From an uncultured delta proteobacterium (lineage in GTDB: Bacteria; Desulfobacterota; Binatia; Binatales; Binataceae), in contig CAVTIS010000004.1 in assembly GCA_963734845.1 (NCBI GenBank), positions 158,364 to 222,363 on the forward strand: DNA of 64,000 nucleotides, in the 5' to 3' direction. Position numbers and translations under genes: made by a program. The notes beneath the pieces are model-generated. The model saw only the letters and a program-made list of their open reading frames with translations. It did no database searches and was not told where the DNA came from. This document shows positions 17,535-28,231 of the stretch, piece after piece; within the stretch, counting starts at the first letter, position 1; each line of letters starts with the position of its first letter.

Positions 17535-21077
<3,543 letters not shown>

Positions 21078-21115: not shown

Positions 21116-23212
21116 TCAGGCGCGACGGCGGCGGATTTCGCACGCGCGCGGGAATTCGATGGTGAAAGTCGAGCCCTCGCCCTTGCGGCTGGTGGCGGAG
21201 ATACGCGCGCCGCCGAGTTCGACGCACTTGCGCGCGAAGGCCAGCCCCAGTCCCGCGCCCTCGAAGCGCCGGCTATGGCCGGTCTGCTCCTGCGAGAACG
21301 GCTCGAACAGCCGCGGCAGGTAGTCGTTGTCGATACCGATGCCGGTATCGCGGACCTCGAGTTTCAGCGTGCCGGTGTTGTCGCGATCGAGCCCGAGGAC
21401 GATCTCGCCGCGGTCGGTGAACTTGATCGCGTTTTGCAGCAGGTTGGTCAGCGCGGTTTGCAGGCAGAATTCGTCGAAACGAATGGTGGCTTCGGTCTCC
21501 GCGATTTCGAGTCGCAGCTTGAGCCCCTTTTCGTCGGCCAGCACACTGAGATCGTTGGCCTGGTCCTCGATAAACGGGGCGAGCGCGATCGCTGAAGGAT
21601 TAAGCGCCAGCGCTCCGGCTTCCAGCCGCGAGTAGTCGAGGATCTGCTGGATAGTGGTCAGCAGGCGGCGCCCGGCGCGCCCGAGCGCTTCGAGATAGGT
21701 GTCCTGAGTATGGTCGCCGATATTGGCCAGATGCTCGCCGACCAGATCGGTGTATCCCAGGATGACATTGAGTGGCGTGCGAATTTCATGGCTGGTATTG
21801 GCTAGGAAGGCGGACTTCAGGCGTGTCGATTCCAGTGCGGCGTCGCGCGCGCTGGCGAGTTCGATATCGGCCGCGCGGCGCTCGGTGATGTCGCGGAGCA
21901 CCGTCACTACCCGCGGCCCGACACCCAGATCGACCATCACCGCGGAGAGCAGGGTGGGCACGGTCCGGCCGTCACGCGTGCGCAGGTCGGCCTCAAAACT
22001 GTTTACCGCTCCGCGCTCGAGGAGCTCGCGCCCGAAACGCCGATACTCCGCCGAATCCACGAAGAGCGCGAGCTCACGCGGATCTTTGCCCAACGCCTGC
22101 TCGCGGCTGTGGCCATAGACGCGGCTGAACGCGCTGTTGACGTCGACGGTTCGGCCGTCACCTGGGGTTGCGATCACGATCGCGTCCTGGCCGCTATCGA
22201 AGATGCCGCGAAAGCGCCGCTCGCTTTCGCGCAGATCCTCCAGCATCCTTTCGCGCGCGCTGACGTCGCGCGCGTTTCCTACCAGGCATCGCGCGCCCTT
22301 GATGTCGAGCACGGGGCGAGCGTTCCACTCCAGCACCCGCCACGAGCCGTCCTTGTGGCGGATTCGGGAGTGCAGCATCCGCTCTTCTGCGCCCTGAAGG
22401 ACAATGTGGCGCAGGTTGTCGCCAACCGCCTCGCGCTCGTCGGGATGGCATAAATCAAGCGCGCTCTTGCCGACTAACTCCTCGCCTTTGTAGCCAAGAA
22501 TCCTTTCTATGGAAGCGCTGACGAACTGGAACCTGTGATCCATATCCATGACCACTACGAGATCGCTGGTGTTTTCAATGAGTGAACGGAAGTAGCGCTC
22601 GCTCGCGCGCAACTCGCGCTCGCTCTGGCTCTGTCGGATAGCCAAACCCAGAATGTTGGCGACCGACTGGAGAAAATTCACCTCGTCATGGCTGTATTGA
22701 CGTTCCTGCCGATGATGGGCCGAGAGCACACCGTAGGGCCGGTCGCGGCCGTGAATTACGATCGTCACGCCACTGCGCAGGCCGCACTGCTCCGCGATGG
22801 CGCTTTGCAGGCGCCGCTCGCTGCTGAAGTCTGTCACGACCACGGGAGCGTTGACCAGCAAAGCATAGCCGGCGTGCGAACGAGCGCCCGCCTCCGCGAT
22901 CATGGCTCGCACCACGTCCGGTTCCCATCCGGCGCCGGCCCGGCCGATCAGGGTCTCGCGGTCCGGGCGCAACTCGGTCACCGTGGCATAGTCAATTCGC
23001 AAGGTCTGACGGACCAGGCGGGTGGCTTCTTCGAACAATTGCTGCGGGTCGCCGCCAATCAGCGCGTGTTGGCTGAGCGAGGCTACGACCGACTGCTGAA
23101 GAGCATAGTCGTCGCGAGAAACGGTGGCATCGCCCAAGCTCTTGTCGACCATCGCCGCGTCGCCCGCGTGCGATGATCGAATGGCAGTAGGAACGTTATT
23201 GACCTGCGCCAT
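21116..23212 (-). CDS. sensor histidine kinase with GAF and tandem PAS domains
   Basis: HisKA H-box NTSHEIRTPLNVILGY; HATPase G-boxes DTGIGI and GAGLGLA; upstream GAF/PAS-like segments; start set at MAQVNN. Confidence 0.8.
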   Translation of the reverse strand: MAQVNNVPTAIRSSHAGDAAMVDKSLGDATVSRDDYALQQSVVASLSQHALIGGDPQQLFEEATRLVRQTLRIDYATVTELRPDRETLIGRAGAGWEPDVVRAMIAEAGARSHAGYALLVNAPVVVTDFSSERRLQSAIAEQCGLRSGVTIVIHGRDRPYGVLSAHHRQERQYSHDEVNFLQSVANILGLAIRQSQSERELRASERYFRSLIENTSDLVVVMDMDHRFQFVSASIERILGYKGEELVGKSALDLCHPDEREAVGDNLRHIVLQGAEERMLHSRIRHKDGSWRVLEWNARPVLDIKGARCLVGNARDVSARERMLEDLRESERRFRGIFDSGQDAIVIATPGDGRTVDVNSAFSRVYGHSREQALGKDPRELALFVDSAEYRRFGRELLERGAVNSFEADLRTRDGRTVPTLLSAVMVDLGVGPRVVTVLRDITERRAADIELASARDAALESTRLKSAFLANTSHEIRTPLNVILGYTDLVGEHLANIGDHTQDTYLEALGRAGRRLLTTIQQILDYSRLEAGALALNPSAIALAPFIEDQANDLSVLADEKGLKLRLEIAETEATIRFDEFCLQTALTNLLQNAIKFTDRGEIVLGLDRDNTGTLKLEVRDTGIGIDNDYLPRLFEPFSQEQTGHSRRFEGAGLGLAFARKCVELGGARISATSRKGEGSTFTIEFPRACEIRRRRA

Positions 23213-23402
23213 AAGTCGCCTGGTCACCGCACGCCTTTTGCAATTGTTACCTACGTTACTCTTTAGCCCAGCATAAGCAAGCACGCAAAGGAGCGACGGT
23301 TTCGTTCTTTGGCGGAGACGCTATTCGCTCGACGCTCGAGGCCTCAACCGTGGCACCGGCATCGCCGGTCCGCTTCTCTCGGCTTGACGCTCGCGCGAGC
23401 CG

Positions 23403-23421
23403 GATGATAATAATTATCATC
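23403..23421. promoter_or_regulatory. Fur/PerR-type operator (perfect 19-bp 9-1-9 palindrome)
   Basis: GATGATAAT-A-ATTATCATC, an AT-only perfect palindrome in a GC-rich genome, about 100 bp upstream of the rubrerythrin ATG. Confidence 0.6.
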
Positions 23422-23523
23422 TGGCCGGGCGAGCAAAATCACTTTAGAAAGCGCCGCGGCGACGCGCCGCGCGAGCTGCGCCGCCGGCCATTAACCGCGC
23501 ATACGCTCAGGGAGAGAGCAACA

Positions 23524-23940
23524 ATGAACAATCTGAAAGGAACCAAGACACACGCCAACCTTAAGGATGCCTTTGCCGGCGAGAGCCAGGCCAATCGGCG
23601 CTACCTGTACTTTGCCAAGATTGCCGACGTGGAGGGCCAGCCGGAAATCGCAGGGCTCTTCCGCGATACTGCGGAGGGCGAGACCGGGCACGCTCACGGC
23701 CATCTCGACTATCTCAAGCAGGTCGGCGATCCGGCCACTGACCAGCCGATCGGCGACAGCATGCTCAATCTAAAGTCGGCCGTCCACGGCGAGACCTACG
23801 AGTATACGAACATGTATCCCGGGATGGCGAAGACCGCTCGCGAAGAGGGTTTTACGGAGATCGCCGACTGGTTCGAGACTCTGGCCAAGGCCGAGAAGTC
23901 GCACGCCGGTCGCTTCCAGAAAGCCACCACTACGCTTTAA
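23524..23940 (+). CDS. rubrerythrin-family diiron protein (no rubredoxin domain)
   Basis: ferritin-like diiron ligand motifs E..GE...[25 protein letters not shown]...EEG; RBS GGGAGAGAG before the ATG at 23524. Confidence 0.8.
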
Positions 23941-24120
23941 CGGCGGCCGCCCTGTTAGGTCGTGGCATGCGGGCGCGCCGCGCTCGTTTGCATCTATTCG
24001 AAATTCCGGCCCGCCGGACACCGTTGGGCGTCTGGCGGGCCGGCTCGCGCGTCACCGGCCGTAGTGTACTGCCACAACCTCGATGCCGTAACTTCGACGT
24101 GCCACCCGAGAGCCGCTTAA

Positions 24121-25467
24121 ATGGAACGTATCCAGTCGCGACCGACCGACGCTCTTTCGTACAATCAAAACGAGCCCAAGTACTGGGATCGCGCGGCCCT
24201 CGACCAGGAAATCGAGCGCGTGTTCGACATCTGCGCGGGCTGTCGGCTGTGCTTCAACCTGTGCCCGTCGTTCCCGGAGCTGTTCGGGGCGCTCGATAGC
24301 GGCGACGGCGACGTGCGCAGCCTGAGCGCGGCGCACAAGCAACGCGTGATCGATCTGTGTTACGGCTGCAAGCTGTGCGAGGTGCGATGCCCATACACGC
24401 CGCACGACGGCCACGAGTTCCAGCTCGACTTCCCGCGCCTGATGCTGCGGGCGCGCGCGGTCGAAGGCCGCGAACAGGGAATCGGCATGCGCGAAAAGAT
24501 GCTGGGCAATCCGGACCGCCTGGGCAAGGTCGGGAGCATTGTGCCGAAGCTCGCCAATTGGGCCTGCCGCAGCCCTTTTCAGCGCGCGATGATGGAGAAG
24601 ATGCTCGGCATCTCGCGCGCCAAGCAACTGCCTGAGTTTGCCGGCGAAACCTTCGACGCGTGGCTACAGCGCACGGGAATTCCGGCCGCGCCGGCCGAGC
24701 CCGCGGCCAAGGTCGCCATCTTTCATACCTGCTTCGTCAACTACTACAATCCGGCGCCCGGGCGCGCGCTGGTCTCGGTGCTGGCCCGCAATCGATGCTC
24801 GATGGCGTCGCCGGCGCAGAACTGCTGCGGGATGCCGGCGCTGGACGGCGGCGACGTCGCTTTTGCGCAAAAGCTCGCGCGCGCCAACGTGGCCTCGATG
24901 CTGCCGCTGGTGCGCCAGGGCTATCGCATCGCCGCGATCAATCCGACCTGCTCGCTGATGATGCGCGCGGAATATCCGGACCTGCTCGATACCGCCGAGG
25001 GGCGCGAGCTCGCTGCGGCGGTCGTCGACCCGCACGAGCTGCTCTATGCGCTCCGGCGCGAGGGCAAATTTGACCGCGATTTTCGCACCACGCCGGGCAA
25101 GGTCGCCTATCACGTGCCGTGTCATCTCAAGGCCCAGAACGTGGGCCTGCGCTCGCGCGATCTTATCCGATCGATCCCGGGCGCGGAGGTCGTGACGGTG
25201 GACGCCTGCACGGCTCACGACGGCACCTGGGCGATGAAGAGGGAGTTTTTCGAGCTGTCGATGAAGTGGGGAGCGAAGGCCTTCGCCGGAATGAAGGACG
25301 CCGAAGCGCAGGTGTTGGCCACCGACTGTCCGCTCGCCGCGATCCAGATCGAGCAGGCCATCGGCGTGCGCCCGCTCAACCCGGTCGAGATTCTGGCGCG
25401 CGCTTACGAGGCCGACGGCTTCGCCGCGCCAGTGCCGCCGCCGGAGCCGCCCGCCGTCGAGGAGTGA
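24121..25467 (+). CDS. Fe-S oxidoreductase with two 4Fe-4S ferredoxin motifs and CCG domains (GlcF/GlpC/HdrD-like)
   Basis: CAGCRLCFNLCP and CYGCKLCEVRCP (CxxCxxCxxxCP); C-terminal Cys-rich CCG segment (NCCGMPA). Confidence 0.7.
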   Translation: MERIQSRPTDALSYNQNEPKYWDRAALDQEIERVFDICAGCRLCFNLCPSFPELFGALDSGDGDVRSLSAAHKQRVIDLCYGCKLCEVRCPYTPHDGHEFQLDFPRLMLRARAVEGREQGIGMREKMLGNPDRLGKVGSIVPKLANWACRSPFQRAMMEKMLGISRAKQLPEFAGETFDAWLQRTGIPAAPAEPAAKVAIFHTCFVNYYNPAPGRALVSVLARNRCSMASPAQNCCGMPALDGGDVAFAQKLARANVASMLPLVRQGYRIAAINPTCSLMMRAEYPDLLDTAEGRELAAAVVDPHELLYALRREGKFDRDFRTTPGKVAYHVPCHLKAQNVGLRSRDLIRSIPGAEVVTVDACTAHDGTWAMKREFFELSMKWGAKAFAGMKDAEAQVLATDCPLAAIQIEQAIGVRPLNPVEILARAYEADGFAAPVPPPEPPAVEE

Positions 25468-25471
25468 AACC

Positions 25472-26056
25472 GTGAAACCGATAACTCCCCCCGAAGTACT
25501 GCCGGTTACGACCTATGACCGCGTGCGGCCCCTGCTGCGCCCACTATGCATCGCCGAAAAGACGCGCCGTCGCCTCGCCGTCGGTCCTCATCTCACGCTG
25601 ATGTTCGAAAACCGTCAGACGGTCTGGTACCAAATCCAGGAAATCCTGCGCACCGAGCGCATCTTCGAGGAGGCCGCGGTCAACGCCGAGGTCGAGACCT
25701 ATAACGAACTTCTGCCGCGCCCGGGCGAACTCTTTGCCACCCTGCTCATCGAGTATGCGGACCCGGCCGAACGCGACGTCGAGCTTGCCCGCCTGGTGGG
25801 TCTGGAGCGCCATTTGTGGATCGTTCTTGACGGACGCCGCGTCGGCGCCCGCTTCGATGAACGCCAAATGTCGCCGGATCAGATAAGCGCGGTGCAGTTC
25901 ATCGCTTTTCCGCTGGGCGCGGAAGCCGGCCGTTTTGGAGAGCTGGCGGCAGTCGGCAAGGCCGCAATCGAAGTTGACCATCCGCATCTCTCCGTCACGG
26001 CTCCAATTGAAGGCCCACTCGCAGAGGCGCTTAGCGACGATCTGCGCCCCGATTAG
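25472..26056 (+). CDS. DUF3501-like uncharacterised protein
   Basis: about 190-aa protein immediately downstream of the CCG Fe-S gene on the same strand; DUF assignment is from memory of family context and is uncertain. Confidence 0.35.
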   Translation: MKPITPPEVLPVTTYDRVRPLLRPLCIAEKTRRRLAVGPHLTLMFENRQTVWYQIQEILRTERIFEEAAVNAEVETYNELLPRPGELFATLLIEYADPAERDVELARLVGLERHLWIVLDGRRVGARFDERQMSPDQISAVQFIAFPLGAEAGRFGELAAVGKAAIEVDHPHLSVTAPIEGPLAEALSDDLRPD

Positions 26057-26350
26057 GCCCTTTTTTTCTTCCTGCGCCAACGATCACTTACTCGGTCTGC
26101 GGCCTTGGAAACCGTTTTTCCAAGAGCATCTCCGCGGCCGGGATAGTTAGCTGGATTGCTTCATATGATAACTTGAGCTACATTTAAGCGCCTTACTTAT
26201 ATCTAAGACGCGCATCTATGAATCCGCGTGATTTACCTGCTTGCCACAGCACGCCTGTTTATGAGGAATATGGAGACCGTAAGCAATCAGCAAAGCTGCT
26301 TTTAGTCTAACTTAACTGAGCACTGTGGGCGATTGAATTGAATTAGCCGG

Positions 26351-28231
26351 ATGACCGCTATCGCCGAAAAGCTTGCCATCTGCTCTGCTGCGGCCTTCGG
26401 CCTGTCCGTCGCCCTGACGCCTGCGGCCAAGGCGCTCGCCGCGCGCTTCAACATCGTCGCCTCACCTAGCGAAGAGTCGGGCCATCCGGAACCGACGCCG
26501 GTGCTCGGCGGCGTGGCGATCGTGGTTGCCGTGATCGTGGCGCTCGGCCTTGCGGGCGAGCTGCCACTGTGGACGCTCGCCGGAATGCTGGCATTGCTGG
26601 CGGTCGGCACGCTCGACGACGTGGTCGCGTTGAAACCGTCGCACAAACTGCTTGCGCAGTTGATAGTGGTCGCGTTCTTCTTTTGGGCTTCGCCGGCCGC
26701 GCCCGAGGTCACGCGCTGGCCGCTAGTCAATCTGGGGCTGGCCGGCTTCTTCATGGTTGCCGCGATCAACGCCTTCAACCTGGTTGATGGGCTCGACGGC
26801 TTGGCCGCCGGGGTCGGAATTGCCGCGATGGGGGCAGTGGGCGTCGTCGCATGGTGGTCGCGCGACGCGGGGTTGGCATGCGGGGCATTGGCGGCCGCTG
26901 GGGCGTTGGGCGGCTTTTTGTTCTTCAACTTCTATCCGGCGTCGATTTTCATGGGCGACGGCGGCGCACTACCCATGGGTTTTTTGCTTGGAGCCCTGGC
27001 GCTGCAGGGCGCCGGGTTGCAGCGTAACTCGCATCTTTCGTGCGCGGTCTTTCCGGTGCTGGTTATGCTGGTGCCGCTGCTCGACACCGCTATTGTGACG
27101 ATGTCGCGGCTGGCCACGGGAAACCCGATTTCGCGACGCGGCCTGGACCATTCGCATCATCGTCTGCTGATGCTGGGGCTCACGGTGCGGCGCGCAGTGG
27201 TCGTCAGCTGGATGCTAGCGGCGGCAAGCGCACTGCTGGCGGCGGGCGAGAGCCTCTTGTCGCATGTTTATTTGCTGAGCGCTCTCCCCTTCGTGATCGC
27301 AGGAATCGGGGTGATTGGATTGTTCATGGTCGATCTGACTTTCGAGAATCGCGCGCCCGGCATGGACTACGGCTACTTGCAGGGCCTCGCGCGCTACCTC
27401 TTAAGCCTCGGTTACAAGCGGCGTCTGGCGGAAGCGGTGCTCGATTTCGCGCTCATTCCGGCGGCGTATTTCGGCGCCTGTCTGCTGCGGCGCGATTTCA
27501 AGCTCACTGACCCGCAGATCCTTTCGATGATGACGAGCACGCCGGTGTTTTTCGCCGCCACCTACCTCGCCTTCGTGCTGACCGGTGTTTACCGCGGAAT
27601 CTGGCGCTACGCCGGAATCGCCGACATCATTCGCTTCGCCAATGGCTCGCTGCTGGCTGGCATCCTGGTCGCGGTCACCTCGCTGTTCATCCCGATTGAG
27701 GTGTCGGGGTCCGTCGCCGTCCTGTACGTGGTGCTGCTCTTCAACCTGCTGGTGTTCACGCGCGTGTCGTTCCAGCTTCAGCGCCGCGCCCTCGGGCTGT
27801 TGGCGCTGCCGACCGAGCGGGTGCTTATAGTCGGAGCGGGCCGGATGGGCGAGGCGGCCGTGCGCTACATCTTCTCGGGCAGCGACCGGCGAATGCGGCT
27901 AGTCGGATTCGTCGACGACGATGCCTTCAAGGAAGGGAAGCTCGTTCACGGTCATCAGGTGCTCGGCCCGCTCGACGAACTGGCCCGGACCTACACGGCC
28001 ACGGGCTTTCATCGGATTCTTATCGCCGCCGACGCGATCGGCGAGGAACGTCTTGCGCTAGTCAAGGCATTCGCCGATGCTCATGATCTGCCGCTCCAGC
28101 GCTTCTCGATCGAAGTCAACGAATTCGTGCCGATCGTCGCTGGCGACAACAATGGCCGTGGCACGGGCGAAGATAACGCTGCAGTCATCGAAGCGCCTGC
28201 GCCCGCTGTCGTGCGGCCTTCGATCGCTTGA
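26351..28231 (+). CDS. glycosyltransferase family 4 (WecA/MraY-like polyprenyl-phosphate HexNAc-1-P transferase) fused to a C-terminal TM + Rossmann/CoA-binding-like domain
   Basis: GTLDDVVALKP, NAFNLVDGLDGLAAG, FMGDGGALPMG, DHSHHRL (GT4 motifs); C-terminal VLIVGAGRMGEAAVRY...LVGFVDDD resembles the N-terminal module of WbaP/CapD-type proteins. Confidence 0.7.
   Translation: MTAIAEKLAICSAAAFGLSVALTPAAKALAARFNIVASPSEESGHPEPTPVLGGVAIVVAVIVALGLAGELPLWTLAGMLALLAVGTLDDVVALKPSHKLLAQLIVVAFFFWASPAAPEVTRWPLVNLGLAGFFMVAAINAFNLVDGLDGLAAGVGIAAMGAVGVVAWWSRDAGLACGALAAAGALGGFLFFNFYPASIFMGDGGALPMGFLLGALALQGAGLQRNSHLSCAVFPVLVMLVPLLDTAIVTMSRLATGNPISRRGLDHSHHRLLMLGLTVRRAVVVSWMLAAASALLAAGESLLSHVYLLSALPFVIAGIGVIGLFMVDLTFENRAPGMDYGYLQGLARYLLSLGYKRRLAEAVLDFALIPAAYFGACLLRRDFKLTDPQILSMMTSTPVFFAATYLAFVLTGVYRGIWRYAGIADIIRFANGSLLAGILVAVTSLFIPIEVSGSVAVLYVVLLFNLLVFTRVSFQLQRRALGLLALPTERVLIVGAGRMGEAAVRYIFSGSDRRMRLVGFVDDDAFKEGKLVHGHQVLGPLDELARTYTATGFHRILIAADAIGEERLALVKAFADAHDLPLQRFSIEVNEFVPIVAGDNNGRGTGEDNAAVIEAPAPAVVRPSIA

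Follow-up and report, generated by a model that had tools for sequence, protein, structure and literature searches.

A rubrerythrin, RFO, and DUF3501 gene trio in Candidatus Binataceae and its putative role in peroxide defense

Background

The closest described counterpart of the locus analyzed here is the "aerobic-type rubrerythrin – RFO – DUF3501" cluster of Cardenas, Quatrini & Holmes (2016; PMC5114695). That paper reports the co-occurrence of rubrerythrin (RBR), the iron-sulfur protein RFO, and DUF3501 in 185 of 4461 genomes, proposes that RFO makes up for the lost rubredoxin domain, and mentions RFO-DUF3501 fusions in Nitrosomonas as the sole fusion type. Gray et al. (2020, PMC7050145) described all 3 proteins, with predicted mitochondrial targeting, from Andalucia and other protists and suggested that the system was present in the last eukaryotic common ancestor's mitochondrion. 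We analyzed a 64-kb stretch of DNA, hereafter the window, from a metagenome-assembled genome (MAG) of Candidatus Binataceae (Binatota), an uncultured soil bacterium, in which 3 adjoining genes encode the same protein families. This trio almost certainly belongs to the known aerobic-type rubrerythrin system; the window adds no new kind of system and holds a Binataceae copy of the known one.

Two further bodies of work bear on the locus, one on the enzyme and one on its control. Ferriperoxin, the counterpart of RBR in Hydrogenobacter thermophilus, reduces H2O2 and organic hydroperoxides with ferredoxin:NADPH reductase (FNR) and NADPH, and an fpx mutant fails to grow aerobically (PMC3317640). The rubrerythrin of B. 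pseudomallei (BpRbr) has a pre-formed site with promiscuous binding of Fe, Mn, and Co, and the 2025 preprint describing it repeats the hypothesis that the operon partners are electron suppliers (PMC12154734). On the side of regulation, perR-rbr operons with a palindrome over the -10 element are an established pattern in Desulfovibrio and Geobacter (PMC545781).

The gene trio

From the list of open reading frames (ORFs) and the sequence, we identified 3 plus-strand genes with intergenic gaps of 180 and 4 nt, in agreement with the positions, strand, and gaps given in an earlier, preliminary description of this DNA:

23524..23940, plus strand: rbr, encoding an aerobic-type (rubredoxin-less) rubrerythrin of 138 aa (PF02915, 1.6e-29)
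24121..25467, plus strand: RFO, encoding a CCG/2x[4Fe-4S] protein of 448 aa (2 PF02754 domains, 3e-18, plus Fer4)
25472..26056, plus strand: DUF3501, encoding a protein of 194 aa from a GTG start (PF12007, 8.7e-55, end-to-end match)

The mechanical ORF of rbr begins at 23350; the ATG at 23524, preceded by GGGAGAGAG, was preferred because the resulting 138-aa product aligns from residue 2 with full-length solved rubrerythrins. This product is ~70% identical to BpRbr (4DI0/9ONM; E 1e-63), is related to sulerythrin (1J30) with a full-length match (E 2e-56), and carries the complete set of diiron ligand motifs (E20, E53xxH56, E90xxE93, and E124xxH127). PF02915 is its sole Pfam domain, and it has no cysteine and therefore no rubredoxin center, as expected for the rubredoxin-less rubrerythrin named in the preliminary description. 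With the classical rubrerythrin model NF045767, RBR scored 131.8 against a cutoff of 200 and matched profile positions 1-142 of 194, falling far under the cutoff because the rubredoxin part is absent. Peroxidase function is established for relatives of this protein and, by likeness to them, is probable for the window RBR itself. No membrane-spanning hydrophobic segment of sufficient length was found in the RBR, RFO, or DUF3501 protein of the window. Minus-strand ORFs overlapping the trio had no family support and were taken as high-GC artefacts.

Conservation of gene order

A one-genome-per-species scan with a DUF3501 alignment yielded 264 relatives that were confirmed; the analysis kept the best 80 loci, and almost all of these come from MAGs labelled Candidatus Binataceae or "delta proteobacterium." The closest relative is 95-99% identical to the window over the 3 proteins. 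Gene order was assessed in the 72 loci for which 2300 nt or more of DNA upstream of DUF3501 was available, and RBR, RFO, and DUF3501 followed one another on one strand in 69 of these, an arrangement far beyond chance. The order was also kept in distant lineages, including L086-L089 and L092, where RFO is ~36% identical, and L102-L108. Together with the 185 genomes reported in PMC5114695, these loci place the family of the third protein beside its 2 partners, a conservation on which the preliminary description had made its single-unit proposal depend. In most loci, the RFO and DUF3501 genes share 4 nt or are no more than 10 nt apart, which argues for translational coupling and a fixed stoichiometry of the 2 products.

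Promoter, operator, and regulator

Two elements upstream of rbr were identified as a promoter-like site and a putative operator:

23384..23389, plus strand: -35 hexamer TTGACG of the rbr promoter-like site
23403..23421, no strand assigned: 19-bp perfect palindrome GATGATAATAATTATCATC, a 7-1-7 Fur/PerR-type putative operator that contains the -10 hexamer

The promoter-like site, TTGACG-16 nt-GATAAT, has 10 of 12 matches, and its -10 hexamer GATAAT (23406-23411) lies inside the palindrome. The Fur/PerR-like box reported upstream of rbr in the preliminary description proved to be a perfect 19-bp palindrome that occurs at a single place in the 64-kb window; 100 shuffles gave 0 matches to it even when 3 mismatches were allowed. 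It is identical or has 1 central change in the 12 closest loci, at a varying distance from rbr, and an alignment of the window with these loci showed GCTTGAC and the box kept in 13 of 13 sequences with diverging flanks, a phylogenetic footprint.

Approximately 55 more distant loci have a Fur-family gene directly upstream of rbr, and the same box lies ~20-30 nt upstream of this gene in most such loci (L014-L080), mostly with 0-2 mismatches. The regulators of these relatives scored 104-109 bits with PerR models, compared with 76-80 for Bacillus Fur. In the clade of the window (L001-L013), the operator is kept and the PerR-like gene between box and rbr is missing. The ancestral layout was likely box - regulator - rbr - RFO - DUF3501, because the arrangement with a regulator is prevalent in the more distant loci, and the regulator gene of the window clade must presumably lie at another place in the genome, unless the regulator has been replaced.

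The spacer between rbr and RFO

We located a candidate regulatory hairpin in the gap that follows rbr:

24006..24043, plus strand: GC-rich stem-loop with a 14-bp outer stem and without a U tract, from the fold of the rbr-RFO spacer

For the entire 180-nt gap, the fold barely exceeds that of shuffles in stability (z = -1.44), and the case for the hairpin rests on comparison across loci and not on the fold of the single window. In all 58 related spacers, the strongest 50-nt hairpin was more stable than the coding control, with means of -33 kcal/mol for spacers and -22 kcal/mol for RFO coding pieces of equal length (Wilcoxon p = 3.5e-11). The hairpin sequences differ among lineages, and U runs follow some of them. 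This element may be a conserved partial terminator or an mRNA-stabilizing structure that leaves more rbr message than RFO-DUF3501 message, and it probably sets the RBR:RFO:DUF3501 expression ratio.

The same observations could be read as 2 transcription units, with rbr essentially monocistronic and ending at the hairpin and RFO-DUF3501 transcribed separately or by rare read-through. Such a division is in keeping with a spacer that is long everywhere (median 177 nt, range 47-1417) next to a tightly coupled RFO-DUF3501 pair, and with a very stable hairpin in 58 of 58 spacers that is followed by U runs in some. However, the window hairpin has no U tract, no promoter-like site was found in the 180-nt gap, the gene order is kept across lineages, and a partial terminator or stabilizer fits one regulated unit too. 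We regard 2 units as possible but somewhat unlikely and prefer a single regulated unit with uneven output.

A consensus terminator scan gave nothing credible after rbr or DUF3501, and no Rfam family came near threshold in 23100-26400. Expanded rbr-RFO spacers of 455-1417 nt were observed in L025:2228-3646, L019:3039-3664, and L029:3148-3604 and possibly hold an inserted gene or element.

RFO, a CCG iron-sulfur protein distinct from GlpC

The second gene encodes a CCG iron-sulfur protein, as had been described, with 2 PF02754 domains and 2 CxxCxxCxxxCP motifs (C38-C48 and C80-C90), the latter for 2 cubane [4Fe-4S] sites. In CCG proteins of the HdrB/HdrD type, each CCG domain has 5 Cys as ligands of a noncubane [4Fe-4S] cluster. 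The first CCG domain of RFO holds C204, C226, C235, C236, and C277, of which C226 is missing in L079 and L080. In the second, the only cysteines are C334, C363, and C403, accompanied by an invariant H366-D367-G368; the CCG motif there reads C363-T-A-H366-D-G (family form C-[TSC]-x-H-[DG]-G), and of the terminal CxxC a single Cys is left. Compared with E. coli GlpC, to which RFO is 30% identical over ~400 residues, QCCGIAGT has become ACTAHDGT and the terminal DCETC has become DCPLA. Both C363 and H366 persist in RFOs of only 36% identity, which read RCSGHGGS, and this altered motif is a usable signature for telling RFO from GlpC.

This distinction matters for annotation, as many records of close homologues (P0271-P0390) carry the JGI or NCBI pipeline name "anaerobic glycerol-3-phosphate dehydrogenase subunit C," the other pipeline name being "heterodisulfide reductase-related." If the first of these names were right, the second gene would be a true GlpC whose position beside rbr has no functional meaning. 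The best NCBIfam match, NF008369 (PRK11168), at 274 of the 278 bits of its cutoff, and the identity to E. coli GlpC agree with that name, but the other equivalog model, TIGR03379, reached 183 of 279.9 bits, so that both cutoffs were failed. Further, tblastn searches of the 64-kb window using GlpA and a partial GlpB from E. coli found no homologue of either, the replacement of the second CCG motif and terminal CxxC extends to distant RFOs, and the gene stands between rbr and DUF3501 in 69 of the 72 loci. GlpC identity was rejected on these grounds and is, in our view, extremely unlikely; RFO is routinely misnamed as GlpC in public annotation.

The AlphaFold2 (AF2) model of RFO has a predicted local distance difference test score (pLDDT) of 84, low exactly at 88-99 and 364-371, and its top Foldseek matches are LutA, M. 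smegmatis EtfD, and HdrB. PDB sequence searches with RFO as a single sequence, as its C-terminal half, and as a 19-sequence profile returned just ferredoxin-domain or chance matches, so the structural relatives are known from the fold search. LutA, EtfD, and HdrB are Fe-S/CCG modules that link a dehydrogenase or cytochrome to a terminal substrate by electron transfer, and RFO is a candidate electron carrier because its fold resembles these electron-transfer modules. The sole solved CCG protein reached by the RFO profile was PDB 9ojn, M. smegmatis EtfD (E 0.0064), which is also among the top fold matches; it is membrane-bound and could serve as a structural template for the cluster geometry of RFO.

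DUF3501 and its links to other peroxidases

DUF3501 starts 4 nt after the RFO stop, with GAGGAG 7 nt upstream of its GTG, and its AF2 model is confident (pLDDT 93.8, predicted template modeling score 0.88). The family comprises 2130 clusters at 50% identity, and R33, T50, Q54, E57, E62, and D190 are invariant among 63 diverse members.

Three loci had DUF3501 without RBR or RFO, and 2 of these, L063 and L073, read PerR-like - katG - DUF3501; the MAGs in question also hold the full trio (L052 and L076). A metagenome scan added 2 more variants of this layout, L083 and L084. In all of them the genes lie on one strand (L073:1987-5582, L063:1945-5591, L084:1-3623, and L083:1-937), and L081 and L082 are identical to L073. 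The katG-linked DUF3501 paralogues share 45-49% identity with the copy in the trio of their own genome, and the invariant residues are unchanged in them except for E62D in L073. No Fur-type box, allowing up to 3 mismatches, was found upstream of the katG-linked regulators.

Among the longer family members we identified a DUF3501::AhpC/TSA fusion, and a search with it gave 11 clusters that are 52-100% identical and include one labelled Nannocystaceae. The fused peroxiredoxin is C-terminal and, as read from the sequence, has the Cys-x4-Cys motif of the BCP/PrxQ type. In 3 of the 3 clusters whose contigs were read, the fusion gene is third after RBR and RFO, and the RFO stop overlaps the fusion start:

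L102:4124-7086: RBR, RFO, and DUF3501::peroxiredoxin trio
L105:4123-7098: RBR, RFO, and DUF3501::peroxiredoxin trio
L108:3070-6080: RBR, RFO, and DUF3501::peroxiredoxin trio

The proteins of this group are P0398, P0400, P0394, and P0225. Independently of rubrerythrin, the fusions and the katG-linked paralogues connect DUF3501 with peroxide chemistry. In view of them, a physical partnership of DUF3501 with peroxide-reducing enzymes is likely, and they suggest that DUF3501 is not specific to rubrerythrin.

RFO and DUF3501 might, then, form a separate and general peroxidase-accessory module instead of the reductase of RBR, with DUF3501 as an interchangeable adaptor for RBR, KatG, and PrxQ and with the HdrB-like CCG site of RFO performing thiol/disulfide chemistry, for example, the re-reduction of a peroxiredoxin disulfide. 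The PrxQ-like fusions directly after RFO would fit such a module, as would the DUF3501 paralogues after katG in trio-bearing genomes (L073/L076 and L063/L052). The CCG domains of HdrB catalyze disulfide reduction, and RFO has a fold match to HdrB. The Thermoproteales that have RBR and DUF3501 without RFO, and the direct use of FNR by ferriperoxin, point in the same direction. However, RBR is the only peroxidase in the cluster in the window and in most genomes, the second CCG site of RFO lacks 2 of the 5 HdrB-type cluster cysteines, and the KatG-linked layout is found in just 4 sequence variants of one lineage. An accessory module is thus doubtful in our judgment, and we slightly favor RFO and DUF3501 as the partners of RBR in its reduction.

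A related and equally speculative idea, to which we also give a low probability, is that DUF3501 acts as a modular adaptor through which one Fe-S reductase, RFO, serves rubrerythrin, a fused PrxQ-type peroxiredoxin, and, via a dedicated paralogue, KatG. If this were true, the aerobic-type rubrerythrin system would be one case of a wider platform in which RFO and DUF3501 recharge peroxidases, with PerR-like regulation at the locus, and early mitochondria would have inherited this platform too.

Several other contexts of the family were observed. In L093:1454-2970, a major-intrinsic-protein (aquaporin-type) gene (PF00230, 1.4e-41) lies immediately before a distant DUF3501 (30-35% identical), and a small 2x[4Fe-4S] ferredoxin is encoded upstream; the ORF upstream of DUF3501 in L097:35-1517 opens with the same N-terminal sequence as the aquaporin-type protein of L093. 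L095 holds a distant solo DUF3501. Many DUF3501 proteins, among them P0146, P0152, P0162, P0170, P0190, and P0213 (~300 aa), have a C-terminal extension of ~100 aa with no Pfam match, and several DUF3501 extensions end in a ...RWH[LIV]... motif. Single fusions were found with a ferritin-like domain (P0207) and with AHSA1/SRPBCC (PF08327; P0218).

Proposed mechanism

We propose that the trio is a Binataceae peroxide-defense unit with PerR-type control, RBR as the peroxidase, RFO-DUF3501 as its reductase complex, and output tuned by the hairpin, a model that we consider reasonably probable as a whole. A PerR-like repressor encoded elsewhere in the genome would hold the unit off until peroxide appears, and the promoter with its -10 element inside the Fur/PerR-type operator would then drive rbr. 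The diiron site of RBR would be where H2O2 and organic hydroperoxides are reduced. In place of the missing rubredoxin domain, a complex of RFO and DUF3501 would re-reduce this site, with RFO passing electrons through its Fe-S clusters and DUF3501, which has no cofactor motif, bringing the peroxidase to RFO as a docking or adaptor subunit. RFO might draw its electrons from a ferredoxin/NAD(P)H system, from a thiol, or from quinol. The hairpin would keep rbr mRNA above the RFO-DUF3501 message and in this way set the stoichiometry. The assignment of RFO and DUF3501 as the reductase of RBR, taken by itself, we favor only slightly. The view of the preliminary description that the genes act as one peroxide-stress unit is supported by the conserved trio, the PerR-like genes with the same operator before rbr in relatives, the peroxiredoxin fusions, and the katG-linked paralogues.

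Several points weigh against this proposal. By tblastn, no Fur-family gene was found in the 64-kb window (E at least 0.17), and the regulators of the relatives score under the curated NCBIfam PerR cutoff of 180 bits. The box core, TGATAATnATTATCA, is Fur-type and not PerR-type by the B. subtilis rule. Among the 63 diverse members, DUF3501 has no conserved Cys and one near-invariant His only, and a redox cofactor site is therefore not evident in it. DUF3501 also travels with KatG with no RFO adjoining, and its role may therefore be more general than docking RBR to RFO. The hairpin may end most transcripts after rbr. Thermoproteales with RBR and DUF3501 and without RFO are described in PMC5114695, and ferriperoxin turns over in vitro with FNR alone (PMC3317640), so that RFO and DUF3501 are not strictly required for peroxidase turnover. 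The searchable full-text literature yielded no experiment on RFO or DUF3501.

A different function is conceivable in which the trio is an iron-regulated (Fur or Irr) metal-handling unit, with RBR as a ferritin-like iron or metal buffer and the palindrome as a classical iron-responsive Fur box. The core of the box is a perfect match to the 7-1-7 Fur consensus. In a distant lineage, an Irr-type Fur-family regulator (L087:99-545) precedes the trio and scores 189.7 bits with NCBIfam IrrA against a cutoff of 150; a fragment of a like Irr-type regulator was found at L089:3-209. The L087 arrangement suggests iron- or haem-responsive control of that trio, and the Fur-type core together with this regulator therefore keeps iron control a contender. 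The promiscuous Fe, Mn, and Co binding of BpRbr (PMC12154734) and the fusion of DUF3501 with a ferritin-like domain in P0207 are also compatible with metal handling. Nonetheless, the box-linked Binataceae regulators score higher with PerR than with Fur models, RBR has the full peroxidase-type diiron ligand set and relatives with measured peroxidase activity, DUF3501 is fused to peroxiredoxin and adjoins katG, and the regulatory logic would be odd for Fur, shutting off an iron-using enzyme when iron is plentiful. We consider iron-regulated metal handling quite unlikely, and peroxide defense remains the favored function. Bradyrhizobium blr7895, an Irr target, was considered as a possible rubrerythrin of this type; its published description gives it good homology to MbfA (RSP_0850), a membrane-bound ferritin, and the argument was dropped.

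The end of the unit and the neighboring genes

One further feature was read from the sequence directly after the DUF3501 stop:

26061..26067, plus strand: T7 run

This run is a possible weak terminator at the end of the unit. No convincing stem was found at it, and the region after DUF3501 folded no better than shuffles (z-score 0.02), so the evidence for a terminator is weak. A 294-nt AT-richer spacer separates DUF3501 from the next gene.

The flanking genes are unrelated to the trio. On the plus strand, 17535-21077 encodes a protein of 1180 aa, a presumed MetH-type methionine synthase as judged from its sequence. A GAF-PAS-PAS histidine kinase lies on the minus strand at 21116-23284, divergent from rbr, and a glycosyltransferase family 4 (GT4)/CoA-binding membrane protein is encoded on the plus strand at 26351-28231, after the AT-richer spacer.

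Comparison with known systems

The described aerobic-type rubrerythrin system has the same 3 families on one strand, an RFO that is a COG0247/CCG oxidoreductase closest to GlpC, and the same proposed role. The peroxide-stress unit proposed in the preliminary description is supported but not new, and the electron-delivery chain suggested there repeats the published hypothesis. The host analyzed here, Candidatus Binataceae (Binatota), differs from the taxa named in the accessible part of PMC5114695, and our analysis adds to that work the Fur/PerR-type operator, the PerR-like gene in relatives, and the conserved hairpin after rbr; the words Fur, PerR, OxyR, KatG, catalase, and regulator do not occur in its text. 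The operator with its PerR-like regulator, the conserved hairpin, the RFO signature, the DUF3501-peroxiredoxin fusions, and the katG-linked paralogues are increments that provide handles for experiments, leads rather than a discovery in themselves.

Ferriperoxin, sulerythrin (Sulfolobus tokodaii, 1J30), and the B. pseudomallei Rbr (4DI0, 9ONM) are, like the window RBR, one-domain proteins of ~140 aa with the same diiron motifs. They were studied alone, with the ferriperoxin assay containing FNR and NADPH, whereas the window RBR is known from its sequence.

The Desulfovibrio and Geobacter operons perR-rbr-rdl and perR-rbr-roo (Rodionov et al. 2004, PMC545781) have perR directly upstream of rbr, as in relatives of the window, and a palindrome over the -10 element, and the perR paralogues beside katG and rbr2 in Desulfuromonas (PMC545781) parallel the PerR-like - rbr and PerR-like - katG loci. 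In contrast to the trio, these operons encode rubredoxin-domain rubrerythrins with Rdl or Roo as partners and have no RFO or DUF3501, and the window clade differs from them in having no adjoining regulator gene.

RFO shares with the GlpC/HdrD/HdrB/LutA/EtfD family a ferredoxin-like 2x[4Fe-4S] domain followed by 2 CCG domains. Unlike the members of this family, it has no membrane anchor and no flavoprotein partner nearby, and its second CCG site has 3 Cys and a conserved His where HdrB and GlpC have 5 Cys.

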